From: a virus
Length of the DNA stretch: 16,603 nucleotides
Virus genome (UHGV): UHGV-0121259
Strand: one strand, 5' to 3'
Shown here: positions 1,566 to 15,198 of the stretch, piece by piece
Position numbering within the stretch: position 1 is the first letter of the stretch
Layout: every line of letters begins with the position of its first letter
The notes under the pieces: model-generated
The model's database searches: none
Told to the model about the DNA's origin: nothing
The model's input: the letters and a program-made list of their open reading frames with translations, nothing else
Program-made: the position numbers and the translations under genes

Positions 1566-2066
1566 GCTAGGGGTCAGTTTGGATATCGAAAATTATCGTA
1601 CGTAAAGGTTGATTTTTGTACTACTAGGCTGCGATAAGGGAGATAGACCACGTTGATAGGATGCTTTGAGCGAAGTGCAGACATTTTACTCATGGCAGTG
1701 GAGCGTTCCCGATTAATTAGACAGCACTTTCCAGTAACAAATTTAATTTGTATTTTTCGATCCCGGACAAGCAATACTTGTTGCAATTGATGATCGATGA
1801 ATTCTTTTTTGAGTGCCTGCAACGATTAACATCATTGGTAATCACGGAAAGTAAGATGTCTTAATACTTGCATATCTTTAACAGAAAATTCATGTAGTTG
1901 ATGACTATGATGGTCATCGCCTTTAATGAAATATCTACGTCCCAAAATCCCGTTCTAACCGCGAGTAAAATATCCGGCGTGGGGCATCAGGGAACAACGG
2001 CTGAAATTATCCCGCATTACGCTGGCGCCAGCTTAGCCCTGGCCACCAGCTTGAAGGGAGTTTCCG

Positions 2067-3008
2067 CTATTGATTTCTGAAGAACGCGGTCCTTGAAAGG
2101 GTCATTTGCGTCTGGCAGTCGACCATTTTCTTGACTTCAGCATCTGTTCCCTGCATTGAAACTTTACCGCACATAGCGTCCTTAGTTTTGATCCACTGGC
2201 GCTGAGAAGGCAGCAACTCTTTTTTCTTCTCTGGTGTTAATGTGCTCCAAGCGGTATTCAAATCAGAGTCAGCATTCGCAAAAGCCATTCGGGACTGATC
2301 AAGGTTGTCAGCTTTTTGTTGCTGAGGCTGCTGGTAGGATTGTTGTTGAATGGTTTGCTGAACCTGCTGCTCCGCCTCATATTTAGCCTGTTGCTGCGCC
2401 CTGAGTTGTGCCTGTTGTTCCGCTTCAATTTGACTTTGCTGGGCATCCTTAGCCTGCTGGATTTTCTGCTGCTCAACGATCGGGTTGATGATGGAAAGCG
2501 ATGTCAGTGCAGCGGCACCCACTGATATTGGGTTATCAGAAGAAGCTTTCACAAAAACGTTTTTCTGATCGTCGGTTGCCTGTGCGGTGTAGGAGATGCG
2601 TTTTGAAAAGGCGTTTGCGTTGTTATCCAAAGACAGGCTTTCCATTTGCTTGTCGAGATTACGGTTAAAGTTCTTTCTGTAAGCATCAGAAAGCTGTGCG
2701 TACTCGTTCGCAGGTAGGGTCATCGTCACGGTCCCTTCACAAGTTTTCATTGTGCTGCCCGTGTCACTTGAAGTTGTGGAGATTTCAGAGATGGTCAGTT
2801 TAATCTTGTCCAAAGCGCTTCGTTTGGTCTGATTAGTGACGTCAGGGTATTTGTCGACCTGTTCAGAGAGACCTTCATAAGCAGATTTTTTTATTAAATC
2901 CATGAGAGCTGACTGGGTCATTTCAGAGGAACAACCGATCACGTCTTTTTTGTTATCACAGCCTGTAATGGCAACGGCGAGTAAGAGTGCTGAGTATTTT
3001 AATCTCAT
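2067..3008 (-). CDS. lipoprotein with Gln-rich coiled-coil segment and C-terminal DUF1311 (LprI-like) domain
   Basis: Lipobox LLAVAITGC at the N-terminus; central Q/A/E-rich heptad-like stretch; C-terminus (ADSDLNTAWSTL...QRQWIKTKDAMCGK...VDCQTQMTLSRTAFF) fits the DUF1311 pattern of a conserved W, two Cys and an Arg. Confidence 0.7.
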   Translation of the reverse strand: MRLKYSALLLAVAITGCDNKKDVIGCSSEMTQSALMDLIKKSAYEGLSEQVDKYPDVTNQTKRSALDKIKLTISEISTTSSDTGSTMKTCEGTVTMTLPANEYAQLSDAYRKNFNRNLDKQMESLSLDNNANAFSKRISYTAQATDDQKNVFVKASSDNPISVGAAALTSLSIINPIVEQQKIQQAKDAQQSQIEAEQQAQLRAQQQAKYEAEQQVQQTIQQQSYQQPQQQKADNLDQSRMAFANADSDLNTAWSTLTPEKKKELLPSQRQWIKTKDAMCGKVSMQGTDAEVKKMVDCQTQMTLSRTAFFRNQ

Positions 3009-3459
3009 GAGTTCCCTTTAGAGTAAGGATTGGCTTTTAAGAGGCGGTCTGTAATCAGTCTGGAGGGCTATAGCAAACAGCGCTGAACACTGAACGCATC
3101 ACAAGCAAGAACCAAGGTGGTATCGGCAAAGACTGTGGAATCTTTAATTCAACTGATGAGAACGGTATGCACAAGGTTCAGTATCGATTATCCCGATGCA
3201 GGAAACCTGCAAGGCAGGTTTTGCTGCTGAACTTAAAAAAAGCTAGGTAAAGTCGGTACTGGCGTACCATTTATGACCTTTCACCTCCGCGGTGCACGAA
3301 AAAAATTCCGCAGAAATTCGTTCTTGGCTCATGTGTTCTGCTCCCTTCAAATTAATGCAGACCAAACTTAGCAACTTCCGCTCCTGGCACGAAGCCGACT
3401 ATACGCCTGAAGTATCATAGCTTAATTGGTTCTCTACACTCGCCACTGGGAGCGACTAC

Positions 3460-4104
3460 CTACGTTCTCTTCCCCCGTCCCATCTTCAGTACCTCATAAA
3501 AGGTCCCTCGCCCAAGCCCGTCTGACAACAATTCTCGCTCCTGAGCCAGCGTTTTCAGCTTTCGAAGTATCCGATCCGAAGCCGGCTTATCAGACGTCCC
3601 GTAACGCCCGTCAGTCTCCTCAACCAGAAGCTGAACCAGTAGCCAGCAGAGTCGGGCTGTATTCTCCCGCGCTTTGTCACGCTTATGCATCCCACGCTGG
3701 GAAGGTTGTGCTGAAGCAGTGAGATCCGGTAGCGCATCGTCGCCGAGTGTCTTCAGCCACTTGCGGCCACGGCTGTTGCGTGACAGTTTCATCACCGCCT
3801 TAAGGCTGCGGGCCTTAATTTCTGGCGGCGTGAGTTCGTCATCAATAAGCCGCCAGGCCAGGGCAAACATTTCATCGGCATAGAACATGCGTTTATTCGC
3901 CGGGGCGCTGATCATGCCCGTTGCTTTGATGGTGCGGCTGATGGCGTCGTGCAGGATACGGTAATTTTCCTGATGTTCTTCCGGCAGGGCGTTTGCAGGT
4001 TGGGAAGCATCGAGGCCGAGAAGCAGAAGGGCGAGATGCCGCGCTTCCAGCAGCGGCATATCACATTCCCGTTCAAACAGATTCTGACTAATGGGGCTGG
4101 TCAC
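3460..4104 (-). CDS. hypothetical protein (about 214 aa) coupled to integrase
   Basis: GTG start at 4104 lies 6 nt after a strong AAAGGAG Shine-Dalgarno embedded in the integrase 3' end; the integrase stop is at 4106-4108. No family recognised. Confidence 0.55.
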   Translation of the reverse strand: MTSPISQNLFERECDMPLLEARHLALLLLGLDASQPANALPEEHQENYRILHDAISRTIKATGMISAPANKRMFYADEMFALAWRLIDDELTPPEIKARSLKAVMKLSRNSRGRKWLKTLGDDALPDLTASAQPSQRGMHKRDKARENTARLCWLLVQLLVEETDGRYGTSDKPASDRILRKLKTLAQERELLSDGLGRGTFYEVLKMGRGKRT

Positions 4105-4105
4105 A

Positions 4106-5353
4106 TTATTCTCCTTTCACGATCTGCAGCGGTTCTTCTGCACCGAGCAGCGCCTGTCGTCTGGCAGCATCAACGTAGTTTCCCCACCACTGCATCAGCG
4201 GTCGCCTTTGTTCCAGGTAATCGCTGCGGTTATAGGCCGCTTCGATCTCGTCTTCTTTCTGGTGTGCCAGCGCAGATTCCAGAACTTCACGGGGGAAATG
4301 ACCTGCGCCTGCGGTCCTGGCGATGCTGCGCATGCCGTGGGCGACCAGTTCACCGCCAAACCCCATACGGATAAGCGCGGCGTTCGCGGTCTGTTGGTGC
4401 ATATGCTCCAGTGGTTTGCGAATGCTGGGGAAAACCCACGGACGATGGCGGCTGACTGGCTCCATGATCTGAAGAACGCGCAGTGCCTGTTTGCTGAGCG
4501 GCACCGTATGCGAACGGTTCATCTTCATAAAGGTGTCAGGGATACGCCATTCTGCTTTTTTCATATCGATGTCACACCAGCGGGCGCTAACGGCTTCGCC
4601 GGGGCGAACCCAGGTCAGTAGCTCCCATTCGATAAGGCAGCGGGTTTCCTTGCGGATAGAGGCGTTCTGTAGTGCCAGCATCAGCCTACCCAACTCGCTG
4701 GGGTGGAGTGCGGGCATGTTCTGCTTTTTCGGTTTCTTGAAGCGGGCGACCAGGTTGTCAGCCGGATTGAACTCGATGAGCTCTTCGGAGATGGCAAAGC
4801 GGAAGATTTCATTGAGCCGCGAGATAACCCGCCGCAGCGTTTCGAGGATGCCCTGTTCTTCCAGCGGTGTGAGGTGTTCCTTGAGTATTTTCGGGCGGAT
4901 CTCGGTGACGGGCGTATGGCCCAGAGAAGGAAAGACGTGCATCTCCAGCGAACGCCAGATATCTTTGACGTGATCTTCGCTGAGTCCACAGGTCCGTTTT
5001 TTCTCTTCCAGCCACTGTCCGGCTACCTTTTCCAGCGTGCATTCATTCTGGATGCGTTTTTCTTCGGCCATTTCAGCTAAGTGTTGACGAGGATCGATGC
5101 CCTGCCAGAGCAGTCGTCTGTACTGTGTGCGAGTTTCGCGGGCCATCGCCAGTGTAACGACCGGGTAAGGGCCAAGGCTGGTTTTGGTGCGCTTTTTGGT
5201 GACGGGATGATAATACTCGAAATGCCAGGCCTTCCTCCCTGAAGTCTTAACCAGCAAGTACAGGCCTTCACCGTCCCGTAGCTCATAATCTGTGCTACGG
5301 GGCTTCGCGCCAGCGATCTCCACATTTGTTAAGGGTTTCAGTTGCTTAGGCAT
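4106..5353 (-). CDS. int: P4-family tyrosine integrase (site-specific recombinase)
   Basis: 415 aa; N-terminal arm-binding region (KPLTNVEIAGAKP...DGEGLYLLV) and C-terminal catalytic region with conserved His/Arg/Tyr context (HGMRSIARTAG...ALAHQ...AYNRSDYLEQRR), resembling CP4-57 IntA-type integrases. Lies immediately downstream of the ssrA 3'-end att copy on the same strand. Confidence 0.9.
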   Translation of the reverse strand: MPKQLKPLTNVEIAGAKPRSTDYELRDGEGLYLLVKTSGRKAWHFEYYHPVTKKRTKTSLGPYPVVTLAMARETRTQYRRLLWQGIDPRQHLAEMAEEKRIQNECTLEKVAGQWLEEKKRTCGLSEDHVKDIWRSLEMHVFPSLGHTPVTEIRPKILKEHLTPLEEQGILETLRRVISRLNEIFRFAISEELIEFNPADNLVARFKKPKKQNMPALHPSELGRLMLALQNASIRKETRCLIEWELLTWVRPGEAVSARWCDIDMKKAEWRIPDTFMKMNRSHTVPLSKQALRVLQIMEPVSRHRPWVFPSIRKPLEHMHQQTANAALIRMGFGGELVAHGMRSIARTAGAGHFPREVLESALAHQKEDEIEAAYNRSDYLEQRRPLMQWWGNYVDAARRQALLGAEEPLQIVKGE

Positions 5354-5519: not shown

Positions 5520-5564
5520 TGGTGGAGCTGGCGGGAGTTGAACCCGCGTCCGAAATTCCTACAT
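5520..5564 (-). repeat. ssrA: 45-bp fragment of the ssrA (tmRNA) 3' end; attachment-site core shared by the two elements
   Basis: Minus strand reads ATGTAGGAATTTCGGACGCGGGTTCAACTCCCGCCAGCTCCACCA, matching the tmRNA 3' acceptor/T-arm and CCA tail as I recall the E. coli sequence. DNA 5' of it (5565 onward) is AT-rich and unrelated to tmRNA, so this is a partial copy, not a gene. Confidence 0.85.
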
Positions 5565-5649: not shown

Positions 5650-6717
5650 TTAACTCTCTGCCGCCACTTTGTCGCCATTAAAGGTAAGCAGAGGATCCGT
5701 TTTACCACTATAAGTGGAGATAACTTGAAAGATTGGTACATCATACTTTGCTATCAAATCTGCTATCATGAAAATCTTGCCAGAAGATGCATCGTCTTTG
5801 TATGAAAAAAAATCATCTGTAATATCAAGAATGTCTATCGTAAATTTAAAGTAAGTCGCTATGGTATTTCCAAGCTCACTACTAGACATGAAGTTTGTGA
5901 AAATTTGATATCCTTCTGTAGATAAGGAGGCATGTTCATTTAAACTGACAGTGGTCAAACACAACATCCGGTTTAATTTTAATAGTTTAAATTCTATTGA
6001 ATGTAGTGCTTGCATTTGACGCACTAGAACGTCATTGATATCTAACCCTTTATTCGATGAAGCAAAGCTTTCCATGGATTTAAGAATTTCGAGCCAATAT
6101 TTATTGATTTTTTTTATATATTCTTTATTTGCTTTTGCTGGCCTACCTTTTTCTGGGTTGCTTTCGTCAAATATATATCTATATAAATGTATAGGGTATG
6201 AAACCTTGCATGTAATCTCATGTATTTCAAGGTGGCGTTTGCGATGAATTATTTGGCCAGGTAAATTAGTAAAGTAATCAGTGACAAATTTCAAATGGCT
6301 ATAATGACTATCTGAAAGATTTTTTTGTTTAGCCTCCTGAATCTGTCGATTTGTTTGAACTGTCCGATGAATGTTAGCTACTACGGCAACAAATGGTATG
6401 GATAAAGAAAGTAACGCGATGGGAAGTTTGCTAATAGCAATGAAATTATTAAATCCATCACTGTTAAATTGCGGACTATGTCCAAGCCAGGAAAATAAAC
6501 CAAAATAAAATGATGATAGTAATGGTATCCTTATTGATTGTTTGAATAAGTATTGTTTTGTTAACGGTCTTTCATCCATTTCAAAAGCTTTTTTATTTAT
6601 ACAGAGTGTTAACTCAATAAACACATATAACACATACAAAGATATTAGTGCATATGACAGCCATGAATGTTGTTGAATAAAATCGTTAATAAACACTTTT
6701 TGAGTTTCTCCATCCAA
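5650..6717 (-). CDS. AT-rich membrane-anchored protein of unknown function (about 355 aa), cargo gene between att core and prophage integrase
   Basis: Long ORF in a markedly AT-rich segment (by eye) unlike flanking phage DNA. Three hydrophobic helices in the first ~120 residues, then a ~235-aa K/N/I/Y-rich soluble domain. The start codon is uncertain (TTG at 6717 or GTG at 6696); both overlap the integrase 3' end. Confidence 0.6.
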   Translation of the reverse strand: MDGETQKVFINDFIQQHSWLSYALISLYVLYVFIELTLCINKKAFEMDERPLTKQYLFKQSIRIPLLSSFYFGLFSWLGHSPQFNSDGFNNFIAISKLPIALLSLSIPFVAVVANIHRTVQTNRQIQEAKQKNLSDSHYSHLKFVTDYFTNLPGQIIHRKRHLEIHEITCKVSYPIHLYRYIFDESNPEKGRPAKANKEYIKKINKYWLEILKSMESFASSNKGLDINDVLVRQMQALHSIEFKLLKLNRMLCLTTVSLNEHASLSTEGYQIFTNFMSSSELGNTIATYFKFTIDILDITDDFFSYKDDASSGKIFMIADLIAKYDVPIFQVISTYSGKTDPLLTFNGDKVAAES

Positions 6718-7726
6718 GATTAGCTAGTGGATTCTTTGTTACTGCATCTTCTAAATGGTCGGGGGCAAAGTGGGCGTAAACCATCGTCATTTTTATATCG
6801 GCATGACCCAAAATATCTCGCAGTACCAATATATTTCCGCCGTTCATCATAAAGTGGCTGGCGAATGTATGGCGCAGCACGTGGGTGCATTGCCCCTCCG
6901 GCAGATCAATACTGGCCCGCTTTACTGCCCGCTCAAAGGCTTTTCTGCATGGCGTGAATAACTTCCCTCTGTTTTTGGGGAGTTCTTCATACAGATCCTG
7001 AGAAATAGGCACGGTACGGTTTTTCTTGCCCTTGGTCTTGGTATAGGTGATCCGGTATTTCGATAACTGATGGCCCTGCAGGTTTTCGGCTTCACTCCAG
7101 CGCGCGCCGGTGGCCAGGCATATTTTTGCAATCATCAGCAGGCTGGGGCTTTGAGATTCCGCGCAGGCATCCAGTAGGCGTTTAATTTCTTCCGGAGCCA
7201 AGAACGCCAGCTCACCTTCTGCGATTTTAAATGTTGGTAGCCCGGCGAGAGGGTTTGGTGCTGACCAGTGGCCTAGCTTTTTCAGGGTGCCAAAAACCGA
7301 TGATAGGTTACGTTGTTCGAGGTTTACCGTTCGGGGCTTAACTGGTGACATAAACGCGCCATCTTCATTTCGCATTTCACCTTTTAGCCGCGCTTCCCGA
7401 TATTTTGTGAAATCGGCTGCCGTTAACTCTGAAGCAACCGGATCGCCCAGACCATTACAAATAATGTTGAGTTTCGCCATTAGACGTTTCGGATCCGCAA
7501 GCGTCTGACCGTAGAGTGAGTGCCATTGCTCAATTACTTCTGACAAGCGCCGCCGATCTTCCTTCTCACCAAGCCATGGCTTTTTGTTCACTTCATCCAT
7601 GGTGAAGTTTTCGAATGCTACGGCCTCACCTTTCGTCGCAAATTGCTTGCGCACGCGTTTGCCGTCGCGTCCGTTTGGGTAGCATTCACACAACCATTTT
7701 CCGTTCGGCTGCTTTCTGATGGTCAT
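6686..7726 (-). CDS. int: P2/186-family tyrosine integrase
   Basis: 346 aa; N-terminal arm-binding type fold (KQPNGKWLCECYPNGRDGKRVRKQFATKGEA) and C-terminal catalytic box HVLRHTFASHFMMNGGNILVLRDILGHADIKMTMVYAHF. ATG at 7724-7726, three nucleotides downstream of the repressor stop, as in the P2 C-int operon. Confidence 0.9.
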   Translation of the reverse strand: MTIRKQPNGKWLCECYPNGRDGKRVRKQFATKGEAVAFENFTMDEVNKKPWLGEKEDRRRLSEVIEQWHSLYGQTLADPKRLMAKLNIICNGLGDPVASELTAADFTKYREARLKGEMRNEDGAFMSPVKPRTVNLEQRNLSSVFGTLKKLGHWSAPNPLAGLPTFKIAEGELAFLAPEEIKRLLDACAESQSPSLLMIAKICLATGARWSEAENLQGHQLSKYRITYTKTKGKKNRTVPISQDLYEELPKNRGKLFTPCRKAFERAVKRASIDLPEGQCTHVLRHTFASHFMMNGGNILVLRDILGHADIKMTMVYAHFAPDHLEDAVTKNPLANLGWRNSKSVY

Positions 7727-14598: not shown

Positions 14599-15198
14599 TT
14601 GTCCGAAAATGACATTAAAGTAGTCGCCTTTAATGTCGTAAGCATGAAGGACAGAGAATTGAACTTAGAGCAGATTGCCAGTCAAAGTATAAGTAACCTT
14701 CAGTTTCTTCTCGATACTTTGAAGATGCCGTTGGCTGTTGGTCCAATCAGTGATGAAGACTATGTGATCCTGACCACAGGATACGCTCAGCTAGAATGGG
14801 ATTATGGTTTTTCTCGGTTTGGCAATCGAAGTGATAAGTTTGAATTTTGTTTGAAGCTCCTTGCGGGGCCACTTAGGCATATCCCTTCTGGCGCAGCTAT
14901 GTGCACCTTTGATGAGGACGCTGGAGTCATAGAGATCCATTTTGTGGAATCTTTTGTGAAAGATGATGACGTAGAGCATCCTCTTTACGGCAACATGTTC
15001 ATGGTTACATTGTGGGCGGTATATCTTTTTGGTAGCGCGGTTGGGTGTCAAGAGATTCGCATCCCTGAAGCCCTGAATCAAAAAGTTGCTGATCACTATA
15101 AAAAATTTGGTTTTAAAGGTGATATAAGCTTGCTTTCGGCACCTTTTGCTACAATAACTGATGTAGTAAGACGCTACATTACTTCTAAGAAACAGTAG
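14599..15198 (+). CDS. hypothetical protein (184-199 aa), cargo gene; possible divergent GNAT-like fold
   Basis: ORF in a lower-GC segment (by eye) between cos-like site and portal gene. Start uncertain (TTG 14599 or ATG 14644, neither with a strong ribosome-binding site). C-terminal EALNQKVADHYKKFGF resembles acetyltransferase motif B (e.g. AtaT EALNEKAHTFYKSLGF), but the CoA-binding Q/R-x-x-G-x-G/A motif is not evident. Confidence 0.55.
   Translation: MSENDIKVVAFNVVSMKDRELNLEQIASQSISNLQFLLDTLKMPLAVGPISDEDYVILTTGYAQLEWDYGFSRFGNRSDKFEFCLKLLAGPLRHIPSGAAMCTFDEDAGVIEIHFVESFVKDDDVEHPLYGNMFMVTLWAVYLFGSAVGCQEIRIPEALNQKVADHYKKFGFKGDISLLSAPFATITDVVRRYITSKKQ

Follow-up and report, generated by a model that had tools for sequence, protein, structure and literature searches.

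Pfam family PF07007 (DUF1311) bears the title "Lysozyme inhibitor LprI", a name taken from Mycobacterium tuberculosis LprI, whose inhibition of lysozyme is ascribed to its second domain, MliC (PF09864) (PMC7933661). Among enterobacterial proteins that combine an LprI domain at the C terminus with four conserved cysteines, the one studied is Salmonella ScwA, which is periplasmic. It controls the levels of MltD and other cell-wall hydrolases (MltD, Slt, and AmiC); its overproduction lyses cells, and its deletion leaves lysozyme sensitivity unchanged (PMC7933661). Small LprI-domain proteins adjoin lysozyme-like or LysM type VI effectors as predicted immunity proteins (PMC9796082, PMC8867033, PMC12135965), and the pesticin-like Pse15 and the LprI-domain protein Psi15 form a type VI effector-immunity unit (bioRxiv 10.64898/2026.08.01.741415). 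The common theme of this literature is peptidoglycan glycosidases, not host lysozyme. The subject here is a DUF1311 lipoprotein gene at positions 2067..3008 (minus strand) of a 16,603-nt stretch from virus genome UHGV-0121259, hereafter the window, together with the 1.73-kb cassette in which the gene lies.

Accessory genes bracketed by palindromes, arranged in arrays, and exchanged between replicons are known from integron attC cassettes, Acinetobacter pdif modules, and P2/P4 hotspots, and the cassette described here resembles them in these respects. Rapid cargo swapping at the P2/P4 hotspots has been reported with its mechanism unresolved, and sites of the kind found here are unmentioned in that account (PMC13586616). 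The lipoprotein itself is ordinary; the unexpected result, which merits follow-up, is the pair of sites, termed A and B, that bounds the cassette and unrelated cargo elsewhere.

Domain organization of the lipoprotein

The gene is a genuine open reading frame (ORF) of 313 amino acids with an ATG start and a Shine-Dalgarno sequence, AAGGGA, 5 nt before the start. The signal peptide and lipobox occupy residues 1–17 (2958..3008, minus strand). The lipobox reads L-A-V-A-I-T-G-C17, where MRLKYSALLLAVAITG directly before C17 matches the pattern [LVI][ASTVI][GAS]C, and the predicted lipidated Cys17 is followed by Asp18-Asn19. A classical lipobox had been claimed from the letters of the DNA (the sequence-only reading), and it is retained in 19/19 close homologues and in 89 of 94 distant family members. 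The product is a bacterial lipoprotein and a predicted signal peptidase II substrate. Asp at position +2 is the Escherichia coli rule for retention of a lipoprotein in the inner membrane through avoidance of the Lol pathway, and the +2 residue is Asp in 14 of the 19 close homologues. The DNA of the window derives from the Citrobacter freundii complex. NCBI/RefSeq gives homologues with 99% identity the name "lysozyme inhibitor LprI family protein", and the gene is thus an already annotated, ordinary DUF1311-family member of Citrobacter.

An AlphaFold2 model built from a full-length alignment divides the mature protein into an alpha/beta domain (residues 29–155), a long helix (160–216), a disordered segment (214–233), and a three-helix bundle (236–311). 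The N-terminal alpha/beta domain, or N-domain, corresponds to residues 22–178 (2475..2945, minus strand) and was modelled at a pLDDT of 96.8 using 95 sequences. It is compact and Cys-paired in the model and begins directly behind the lipid anchor; its cysteines C26 and C90 and its motifs STMKTC and YT.Q.TDD are invariant. No Pfam model for the N-domain was found, and fold searches against the PDB and BFVD gave no convincing match; the folds that it weakly resembles are cystatin, latexin, IseA, and NTF2. An exhaustive phmmer search gathered an N-domain family of 123 clusters at 50% identity, nearly all of them lipoproteins of 250–330 amino acids with the same layout; a profile search with the N-domain alignment returned 26 proteins only, mostly fragments. 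The consensus of 95 members retains the lipobox, the two N-domain cysteines, a QPTDD motif, and the C-terminal W, Q.AW, C, C, and R residues. DUF1311 is detected at E < 1e-3 in 46 of these 95, and the N-domain is also paired with other C-terminal modules (SH3_3, TPR, TonB_C, and YARHG). By these alignments, the N-domain defines a wider, uncharacterized lipoprotein family of proteobacteria in which the whole architecture is conserved.

The N-domain is joined to the C-terminal bundle by a Gln-rich spacer of variable length (residues 179–237; 2298..2474, minus strand). It spans about 60 residues here, with a predicted helical part and a disordered part, and 51–85 residues across the 19 homologues. 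The composition of residues 176–237 (40% Gln, 13% Ala, and 8% Glu) bears out the earlier description of a Gln/Ala/Glu-rich segment. The same segment is repetitive only in a loose sense: Tandem Repeats Finder detected no DNA array in 2000–3100, and the protein periodicity is a weak one of 4/8 residues. A coiled coil had also been proposed and is unsupported because the periodicity is not heptad; the best register places strong hydrophobics at 31% of a/d positions compared to a background of 23%. Variation between strains was found in the length of the spacer, and E. coli variants of 307 and 315 amino acids differ by a tandem 8-residue duplication, AEQQVQLR. The predicted mirror ORFs over the Gln-rich stretch are present at 2234–2386 (plus), 2258–2476 (minus), and 2316–2525 (plus).

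The C-terminal domain (residues 238–313; 2070..2297, minus strand) is a DUF1311 three-helix bundle with a C280/C298 pair. The PF07007 profile hidden Markov model matches residues 227–308 at 32.3 bits (cut-off 22, E = 1.4e-7), which agrees with the DUF1311 assignment of the sequence-only reading. The W, Cys, Cys, Arg signature on which that assignment was based is invariant: W254, W272, C280, C298, and R306 are identical in the 19 homologues and in a 19-sequence C-domain alignment of the wider family. The domain shares the helical bundle fold of a solved DUF1311 member (PDB 3GI7). Searches of PDB sequences with the whole protein by phmmer and by profile gave no match; with the C-domain profile, 3gi7 scored no better than E = 0.006, and the IgE and VgrG matches are chance. 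That solved member is PP0307 of Pseudomonas putida, a small, single-domain secreted protein to which the lipoprotein described here adds a lipid anchor, the 155-residue N-domain, and the Gln-rich spacer.

Function of the lipoprotein

M. tuberculosis LprI (Rv1541c) is likewise a lipoprotein with a PF07007 domain, but MliC is found in LprI only, and the domain order and partner domains also differ (PMC7933661). No MliC (PF09864), PliC, PliG, or Ivy (PF08816) domain was found in the protein from the window (MliC, PliC, and Ivy at E <= 1). With MliC absent, the name "lysozyme inhibitor" applies by association. These comparisons bear on the possibility that the protein is a true inhibitor of host lysozyme of the c-, g-, or i-type, as the database name implies and as the sequence-only reading suggested by invoking lysozyme-inhibitor-type lipoproteins. 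The PF07007 match and the resemblance to MliC and PliG as a periplasmic lipoprotein are consistent with such an activity. It is nonetheless highly improbable given the domain searches, the attribution of LprI inhibition to MliC, and the unchanged lysozyme sensitivity of the ScwA deletion (PMC7933661), and the fold matches include no solved lysozyme inhibitor.

The proposal that we favor, with less than even confidence, is that the protein would be a membrane-tethered periplasmic binder of muramidase-type cell-wall hydrolases. An incoming enzyme would be the likelier target because the gene is carried as cargo by mobile elements; in prophages and satellites, it adjoins a retron, a restriction-modification system, or DinI. 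In Citrobacter, the Asp at +2 would retain the protein in the inner membrane facing the periplasm, and the spacer would serve as a reach element that brings the DUF1311 bundle to the peptidoglycan layer. The bundle would bind and then neutralize or tune a muramidase-type peptidoglycan hydrolase; candidate incoming targets would be phage tail lysins and type VI effectors that resemble lysozyme or pesticin. The protein would in this way act otherwise than the MliC-type lysozyme inhibitors. The envelope-protection role put forward by the sequence-only reading would be plausible.

The type VI immunity proteins (Psi15, the SED_RS06230 class, and Vibrio cholerae TsiV3/TsaB) are likewise periplasmic and helical. 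They are single-domain proteins of ~90–150 amino acids, whereas the lipoprotein has two extra modules, and the LprI-domain members adjoin lysozyme-like or pesticin-like effectors, whereas the lipoprotein gene has no effector neighbor. Several observations weigh against the binding of muramidases. The connection from DUF1311 to muramidase binding comes from gene neighbors and from other, much smaller proteins. No type VI effector or lysin gene adjoins the lipoprotein gene in any of the more than 10 contexts inspected, and no adjacent effector, VgrG, or PAAR gene was found in the Citrobacter, E. coli, Enterobacter, Pantoea, Proteus, Morganella, Leclercia, and Yersinia contexts. The sole type VI gene nearby is a convergent orphan hcp in Serratia sp. 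PL17 (L037 7422–7901), which lies 500 nt from a 45%-identical orthologue. TsiV3 is the second-best fold match of the DUF1311 bundle; this likeness is purely structural, with 10% identity and no detectable sequence signal, and generic helical bundles score almost as high in the same search. Membrane sorting is not conserved because the orthologues of Proteus and Morganella have Gly at +2. Finally, the conserved N-domain, instead of DUF1311, may be the functional end of the protein.

The last point leads to a different account, in which the N-domain is the working part that binds a ligand or a protease at the membrane, and DUF1311 is a dimerization or scaffold module unrelated to muramidases. 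The N-domain is the most conserved part of the protein and has two invariant loop motifs, one DPNST-like and the other QPTDD, of a kind typical of binding sites. Its combination with SH3_3, TPR, TonB_C, and YARHG modules and its weak likeness to cystatin, latexin, IseA, and NTF2 point the same way, and in Morganella an N-domain protein adjoins a protease-trapping alpha2-macroglobulin. We consider this account decidedly unlikely: DUF1311 is kept in 46 of the 95 family members, and the consensus retains the DUF1311 signature residues.

ScwA (SL1344_0490) resembles the lipoprotein in outline, with an export signal, a C-terminal LprI domain, and four similarly spaced cysteines (C30/C100/C237/C259 compared to C26/C90/C280/C298 in the lipoprotein). 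Like the lipoprotein, it is periplasmic, low in G+C, and horizontally acquired (PMC7933661). It differs in being a soluble protein of 275 amino acids that lacks a long Gln-rich spacer, a comparison made via its published description only. The resemblance raises the possibility that the lipoprotein is a ScwA-like housekeeping regulator of the cell's own peptidoglycan hydrolases that stabilizes or restrains lytic transglycosylases such as MltD, its carriage on mobile elements being incidental. The altered MltD, Slt, and AmiC levels associated with ScwA (PMC7933661) fit this possibility, as does the stable and solitary position of the gene in the chromosomes of Pantoea, Proteus, Morganella, and most Citrobacter. 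ScwA is not a lipoprotein, however, and it is absent from the match lists of the homologue searches, so that the likeness is known from published features alone. Repeated capture by prophages, satellites, and defense-type hotspots suggests a benefit against incoming threats. A housekeeping role is thus possible but unlikely, and binding of an incoming muramidase-type enzyme stays the reading that we favor. Cluster look-ups for ScwA returned unnamed metagenomic proteins only. A different 253-amino-acid secreted protein of Atlantibacter sp. (L042 5434–6195) has a C-terminal DUF1311 motif and adjoins a phage terminase; it was considered as a ScwA relative and rejected as a separate, phage-borne DUF1311 architecture.

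Genomic settings of the lipoprotein gene

The exact 313-amino-acid protein occurs in three further settings: at the end of a lambdoid prophage, adjoining retron Ec48 and another P4-type integrase, and at a chromosomal locus between a FecCD-type ATP-binding cassette transporter and a major facilitator superfamily (MFS) gene. The commonest Citrobacter variants lie at this FecCD/MFS locus (>1,000 and >500 index blocks, respectively), and in Citrobacter youngae the gene occupies a second chromosomal site. The sequence-only reading placed the gene on a horizontally acquired island. In the window the gene does lie on horizontally acquired DNA, but most Citrobacter copies are at the chromosomal locus.

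A DNA copy with 88% identity is present in 442 of 5,426 complete E. coli genomes. In ST131-type E. coli and in Enterobacter, lambdoid prophages carry the gene as a moron in the interval that separates their replication genes from the Q antiterminator region, and the Enterobacter copy adjoins DinI. The Yersinia aldovae copy is within a P2-like prophage, and the Leclercia copy adjoins a C5-methylase/DUF4928 pair. Pantoea and Proteus have a stand-alone chromosomal gene. In Morganella morganii (L012–L015 1–9002), the orthologue is 300 nt downstream of genes for alpha2-macroglobulin and PBP1C, a proposed periplasmic defense-and-repair pair. No conserved partner gene was found across these contexts. 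The Enterobacter lambdoid prophage that carries the lipoprotein gene also has an Ivy (PF08816) gene in the antiterminator-terminase interval (L008, L011 5178–5591).

Cargo positions in lambdoid prophages, in a P2-like prophage, and in P4-type islands, beside retron Ec48 and other defense-type genes, would also be expected of a lipoprotein for superinfection exclusion that keeps phage DNA from entering or blocks a receptor, with no hydrolase involved, in a role like that of Ltp, Cor, Llp, or SieA. A match to phrog_5094, a phage-associated family of unassigned function, is in keeping with such a role. Against it, PADLOC gave only a chance-level Csx20 match (E = 0.0057) and no defense-system model, and a tblastn search of 50,697 deposited phage genomes with the protein gave no match. 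Many orthologues are plain chromosomal genes, and the fold searches revealed no likeness to known exclusion proteins. Superinfection exclusion is therefore very unlikely.

A cassette bounded by two palindromic sites

Comparison of the settings delimits a 1.73-kb block (~1665–3400) that has 99.3–99.6% DNA identity between the prophage, the retron-carrying island, the window island, and the chromosome; identity is 96% in the commoner chromosomal lineages. The ends of the block are sharp, and each falls inside the center of a 24-nt palindrome, A upstream and B downstream. The resulting cassette runs from half of site A through a small ORF, then the lipoprotein gene and a grpB remnant, to half of site B.

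The upstream boundary, site A, is GTCGGCT-TCGTGCCAGG-AGCGGAA at 3376..3399 (minus strand), and identity starts inside its center in every context. Its consensus from 23 unique sites is GTCCGCT nTGTGCCAgn AGCGGAc. The downstream boundary is a site B remnant, GTCTGCA-CTTCGCTCAA-AGCATCC at 1659..1682 (minus strand), inside whose center the block identity ends; the consensus of 21 unique B sites is GTCCGCT ncTCGCTCac AGCGGAC. A and B have the same arms and different centers, and they are the only two such sites in the window. The gene-facing arm moves with the block, and the outer arm changes by context. At the second chromosomal site, that of C. youngae, the block has 96% identity and a complete B.A composite on each side.

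Known classes of mobile DNA were considered for the block and rejected. An insertion sequence, transposon, or miniature inverted-repeat transposable element does not fit, as 1665–3400 has no transposase ORF and no terminal inverted repeat, and the four junction pairs show no duplication. An integron cassette was dismissed on the boundary centers (GTGCCA and TCGCTC), which lack the attC GTTRRRY core, and on the integrases of the window, which are of the P4 and P2 types only. An exact 28-mer of the left end of the block is absent from species-representative genomes, and a 191-nt segment of the right end has no E. coli match.

Within the cassette, the GrpB pseudogene remnant lies at 1751..1993 (minus strand), where tblastn with Pantoea GrpB gave E = 2e-18 and in-frame stops and a deletion are evident; in Pantoea, an intact grpB is upstream of the lipoprotein orthologue. 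The 5' region of the lipoprotein gene (3009..3236, minus strand) is conserved across 12 aligned upstream regions that include Pantoea. Two boxes in this region, TTAAAG at 3143–3148 and TGCCGATA at 3121–3128, are kept from Citrobacter to Pantoea, and there is a conserved hairpin at 3203–3221. A sigma-70 consensus was looked for in the 5' region and no match was found. The upstream homology of the E. coli and Enterobacter prophage copies stops at ~3223–3236. The 29-amino-acid ORF MSQERISAEFFSCTAEVKGHKWYASTDFT (3243..3332, minus strand) has its own Shine-Dalgarno sequence and is called as a gene in locus L004. Its N terminus, MSQE(R/Q).S..F.SC, is common to the Yersinia, Leclercia, and Pseudescherichia copies, which range in length from 18 to 50 amino acids, and it may be a leader peptide or an upstream ORF.

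A and B sites outside the window

The same sites bound unrelated cargo. Four P2-like prophages share a locus at which one A and one B enclose a different cargo set in each of them: their homology runs from the tail-fibre-assembly gene to A and resumes at B before the sheath gene. A P2-like prophage and the near-identical phage 899 have two cargo genes at this tail-fibre-assembly/sheath locus, separated by a B.A composite. A Pantoea ananatis plasmid carries the array A|DMT+TetR|B, A|attKLM-type operon with IclR|B.A|DUF2268|B.A|gene|B, in which all sites have the same orientation regardless of the orientation of the genes. Of 21 B-to-A spacings, 20 measure 42 nt; no A-to-B pair within 120 nt was observed.

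The 66-nt B.A composite is present, unannotated, in 654 of 5,426 E. coli genomes at one to three copies each, in 4 P2-like phages, and in 279 plasmids. A high-copy repetitive extragenic palindromic (REP) or enterobacterial repetitive intergenic consensus (ERIC) element was rejected on this distribution, one to three composites per genome in 12% of E. coli genomes. All fetched DNA together contains 83 A/B sites compared to 0–2 in shuffles, a ratio that is only indicative because the loci are redundant and were chosen for these features. Other A/B positions are L051 3569–3634 and 5326–5391, L058 3297, 5001, 5043, and 6478, 11 sites in L061, and L062–L064. A full-text literature search for the site sequences found no paper. 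The title of Nilsson et al. 2004 (Mol Biol Evol 21:1) hints that related repeats may have been noted before.

We tentatively propose, as a possibility rather than a probability, that A and B are heterospecific recombination sites of an unrecognized Enterobacterales cassette-exchange system whose recombinase acts in trans. Units of the form A-genes-B would be swapped among P2-like phage hotspots, satellites, prophages, plasmids, and chromosomes, and the lipoprotein gene would be one such cassette. Recombination within the A and B centers would exchange the cassette between replicons, and an empty site would be expected as a single palindrome with 16-nt arms, AATCTGACAGTCCGCT...AGCGGACTGTCAGATT. 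The geometry of the site, read as 9-6-9, fits that of a tyrosine recombinase core site. Two centers on identical arms would permit cassette exchange without deletion. As at the P2/P4 hotspots, cargo differs at a fixed phage locus. The A and B sites are unlike attC or dif in comprising two site types with identical arms and different centers, and in being found in phages, plasmids, and chromosomes alike.

The same boundaries would also result from short-homology recombination, for example of the Red/RecET type, at shared sequences. It counts against the exchange system that no recombinase has been assigned to the A/B sites and that no linked integrase is evident, which again sets them apart from the known cassette systems. 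A candidate exchange enzyme is a stand-alone, FimB-sized tyrosine recombinase of 200 amino acids that consists of the Phage_integrase domain only (L057 6608–7210 and L059 7047–7649). The two copies are 95% identical and occur in two unrelated E. coli islands, each 1.5–2 kb from a B.A composite. The recombinase is present in 863 of 5,426 E. coli genomes and is not near the lipoprotein cassettes.

The island and the prophage in the window

The island backbone at 3460..5353 (minus strand) consists of a P4-type integrase (4106..5353) with Arm-DNA-bind_3, Phage_int_M, and Phage_integrase domains (Pfam) and a 214-amino-acid protein (3460..4104), and it has a match to phrog_30524. In E. coli, the same pair of genes is directly beside ssrA, and variable cargo, AlpA, and a DUF927 primase-type gene come after it. 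The window contains the last 45 nt of ssrA at 5520..5564 (minus strand), an attachment-site copy with 100% identity to the E. coli ssrA 3' end; a tRNA and transfer-messenger RNA (tmRNA) scan and Rfam over the whole window gave no match, and thus no complete tmRNA gene. Beyond the ssrA remnant is a P2/186-like prophage with int, CI, CII, Dam, gpA, and portal genes. The P4-type integrase island (4106–5353) and the P2/186-like prophage (6686–7726), separated by 5520–5564, look like a satellite remnant and a possible helper integrated in tandem at ssrA.

Two further ORFs were noted in this part of the window. A 355-amino-acid ORF at 5650–6717 (minus strand), in a stretch of ~35% G+C, overlaps the 3' end of the P2-type integrase gene and matches phrog_17460. 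A 199-amino-acid ORF at 14599–15198 (plus strand) lies in the gpA-gpQ hotspot of the P2-like prophage and matches phrog_4350. Neither has a Pfam or PADLOC match.

Implications

Hundreds of Citrobacter, ST131-type E. coli, and Enterobacter genomes carry this gene under the name "lysozyme inhibitor" without evidence, and the present analysis corrects that annotation. The gene also provides a clean case of an accessory gene in several settings: a prophage, two satellite-type islands, and the chromosome share a near-identical block that encodes the same protein. An exchange system at the A and B sites would explain the rapid swapping of cargo at P2-like hotspots, and if these are recombination sites, cargo exchange at the hotspots would become directly testable.

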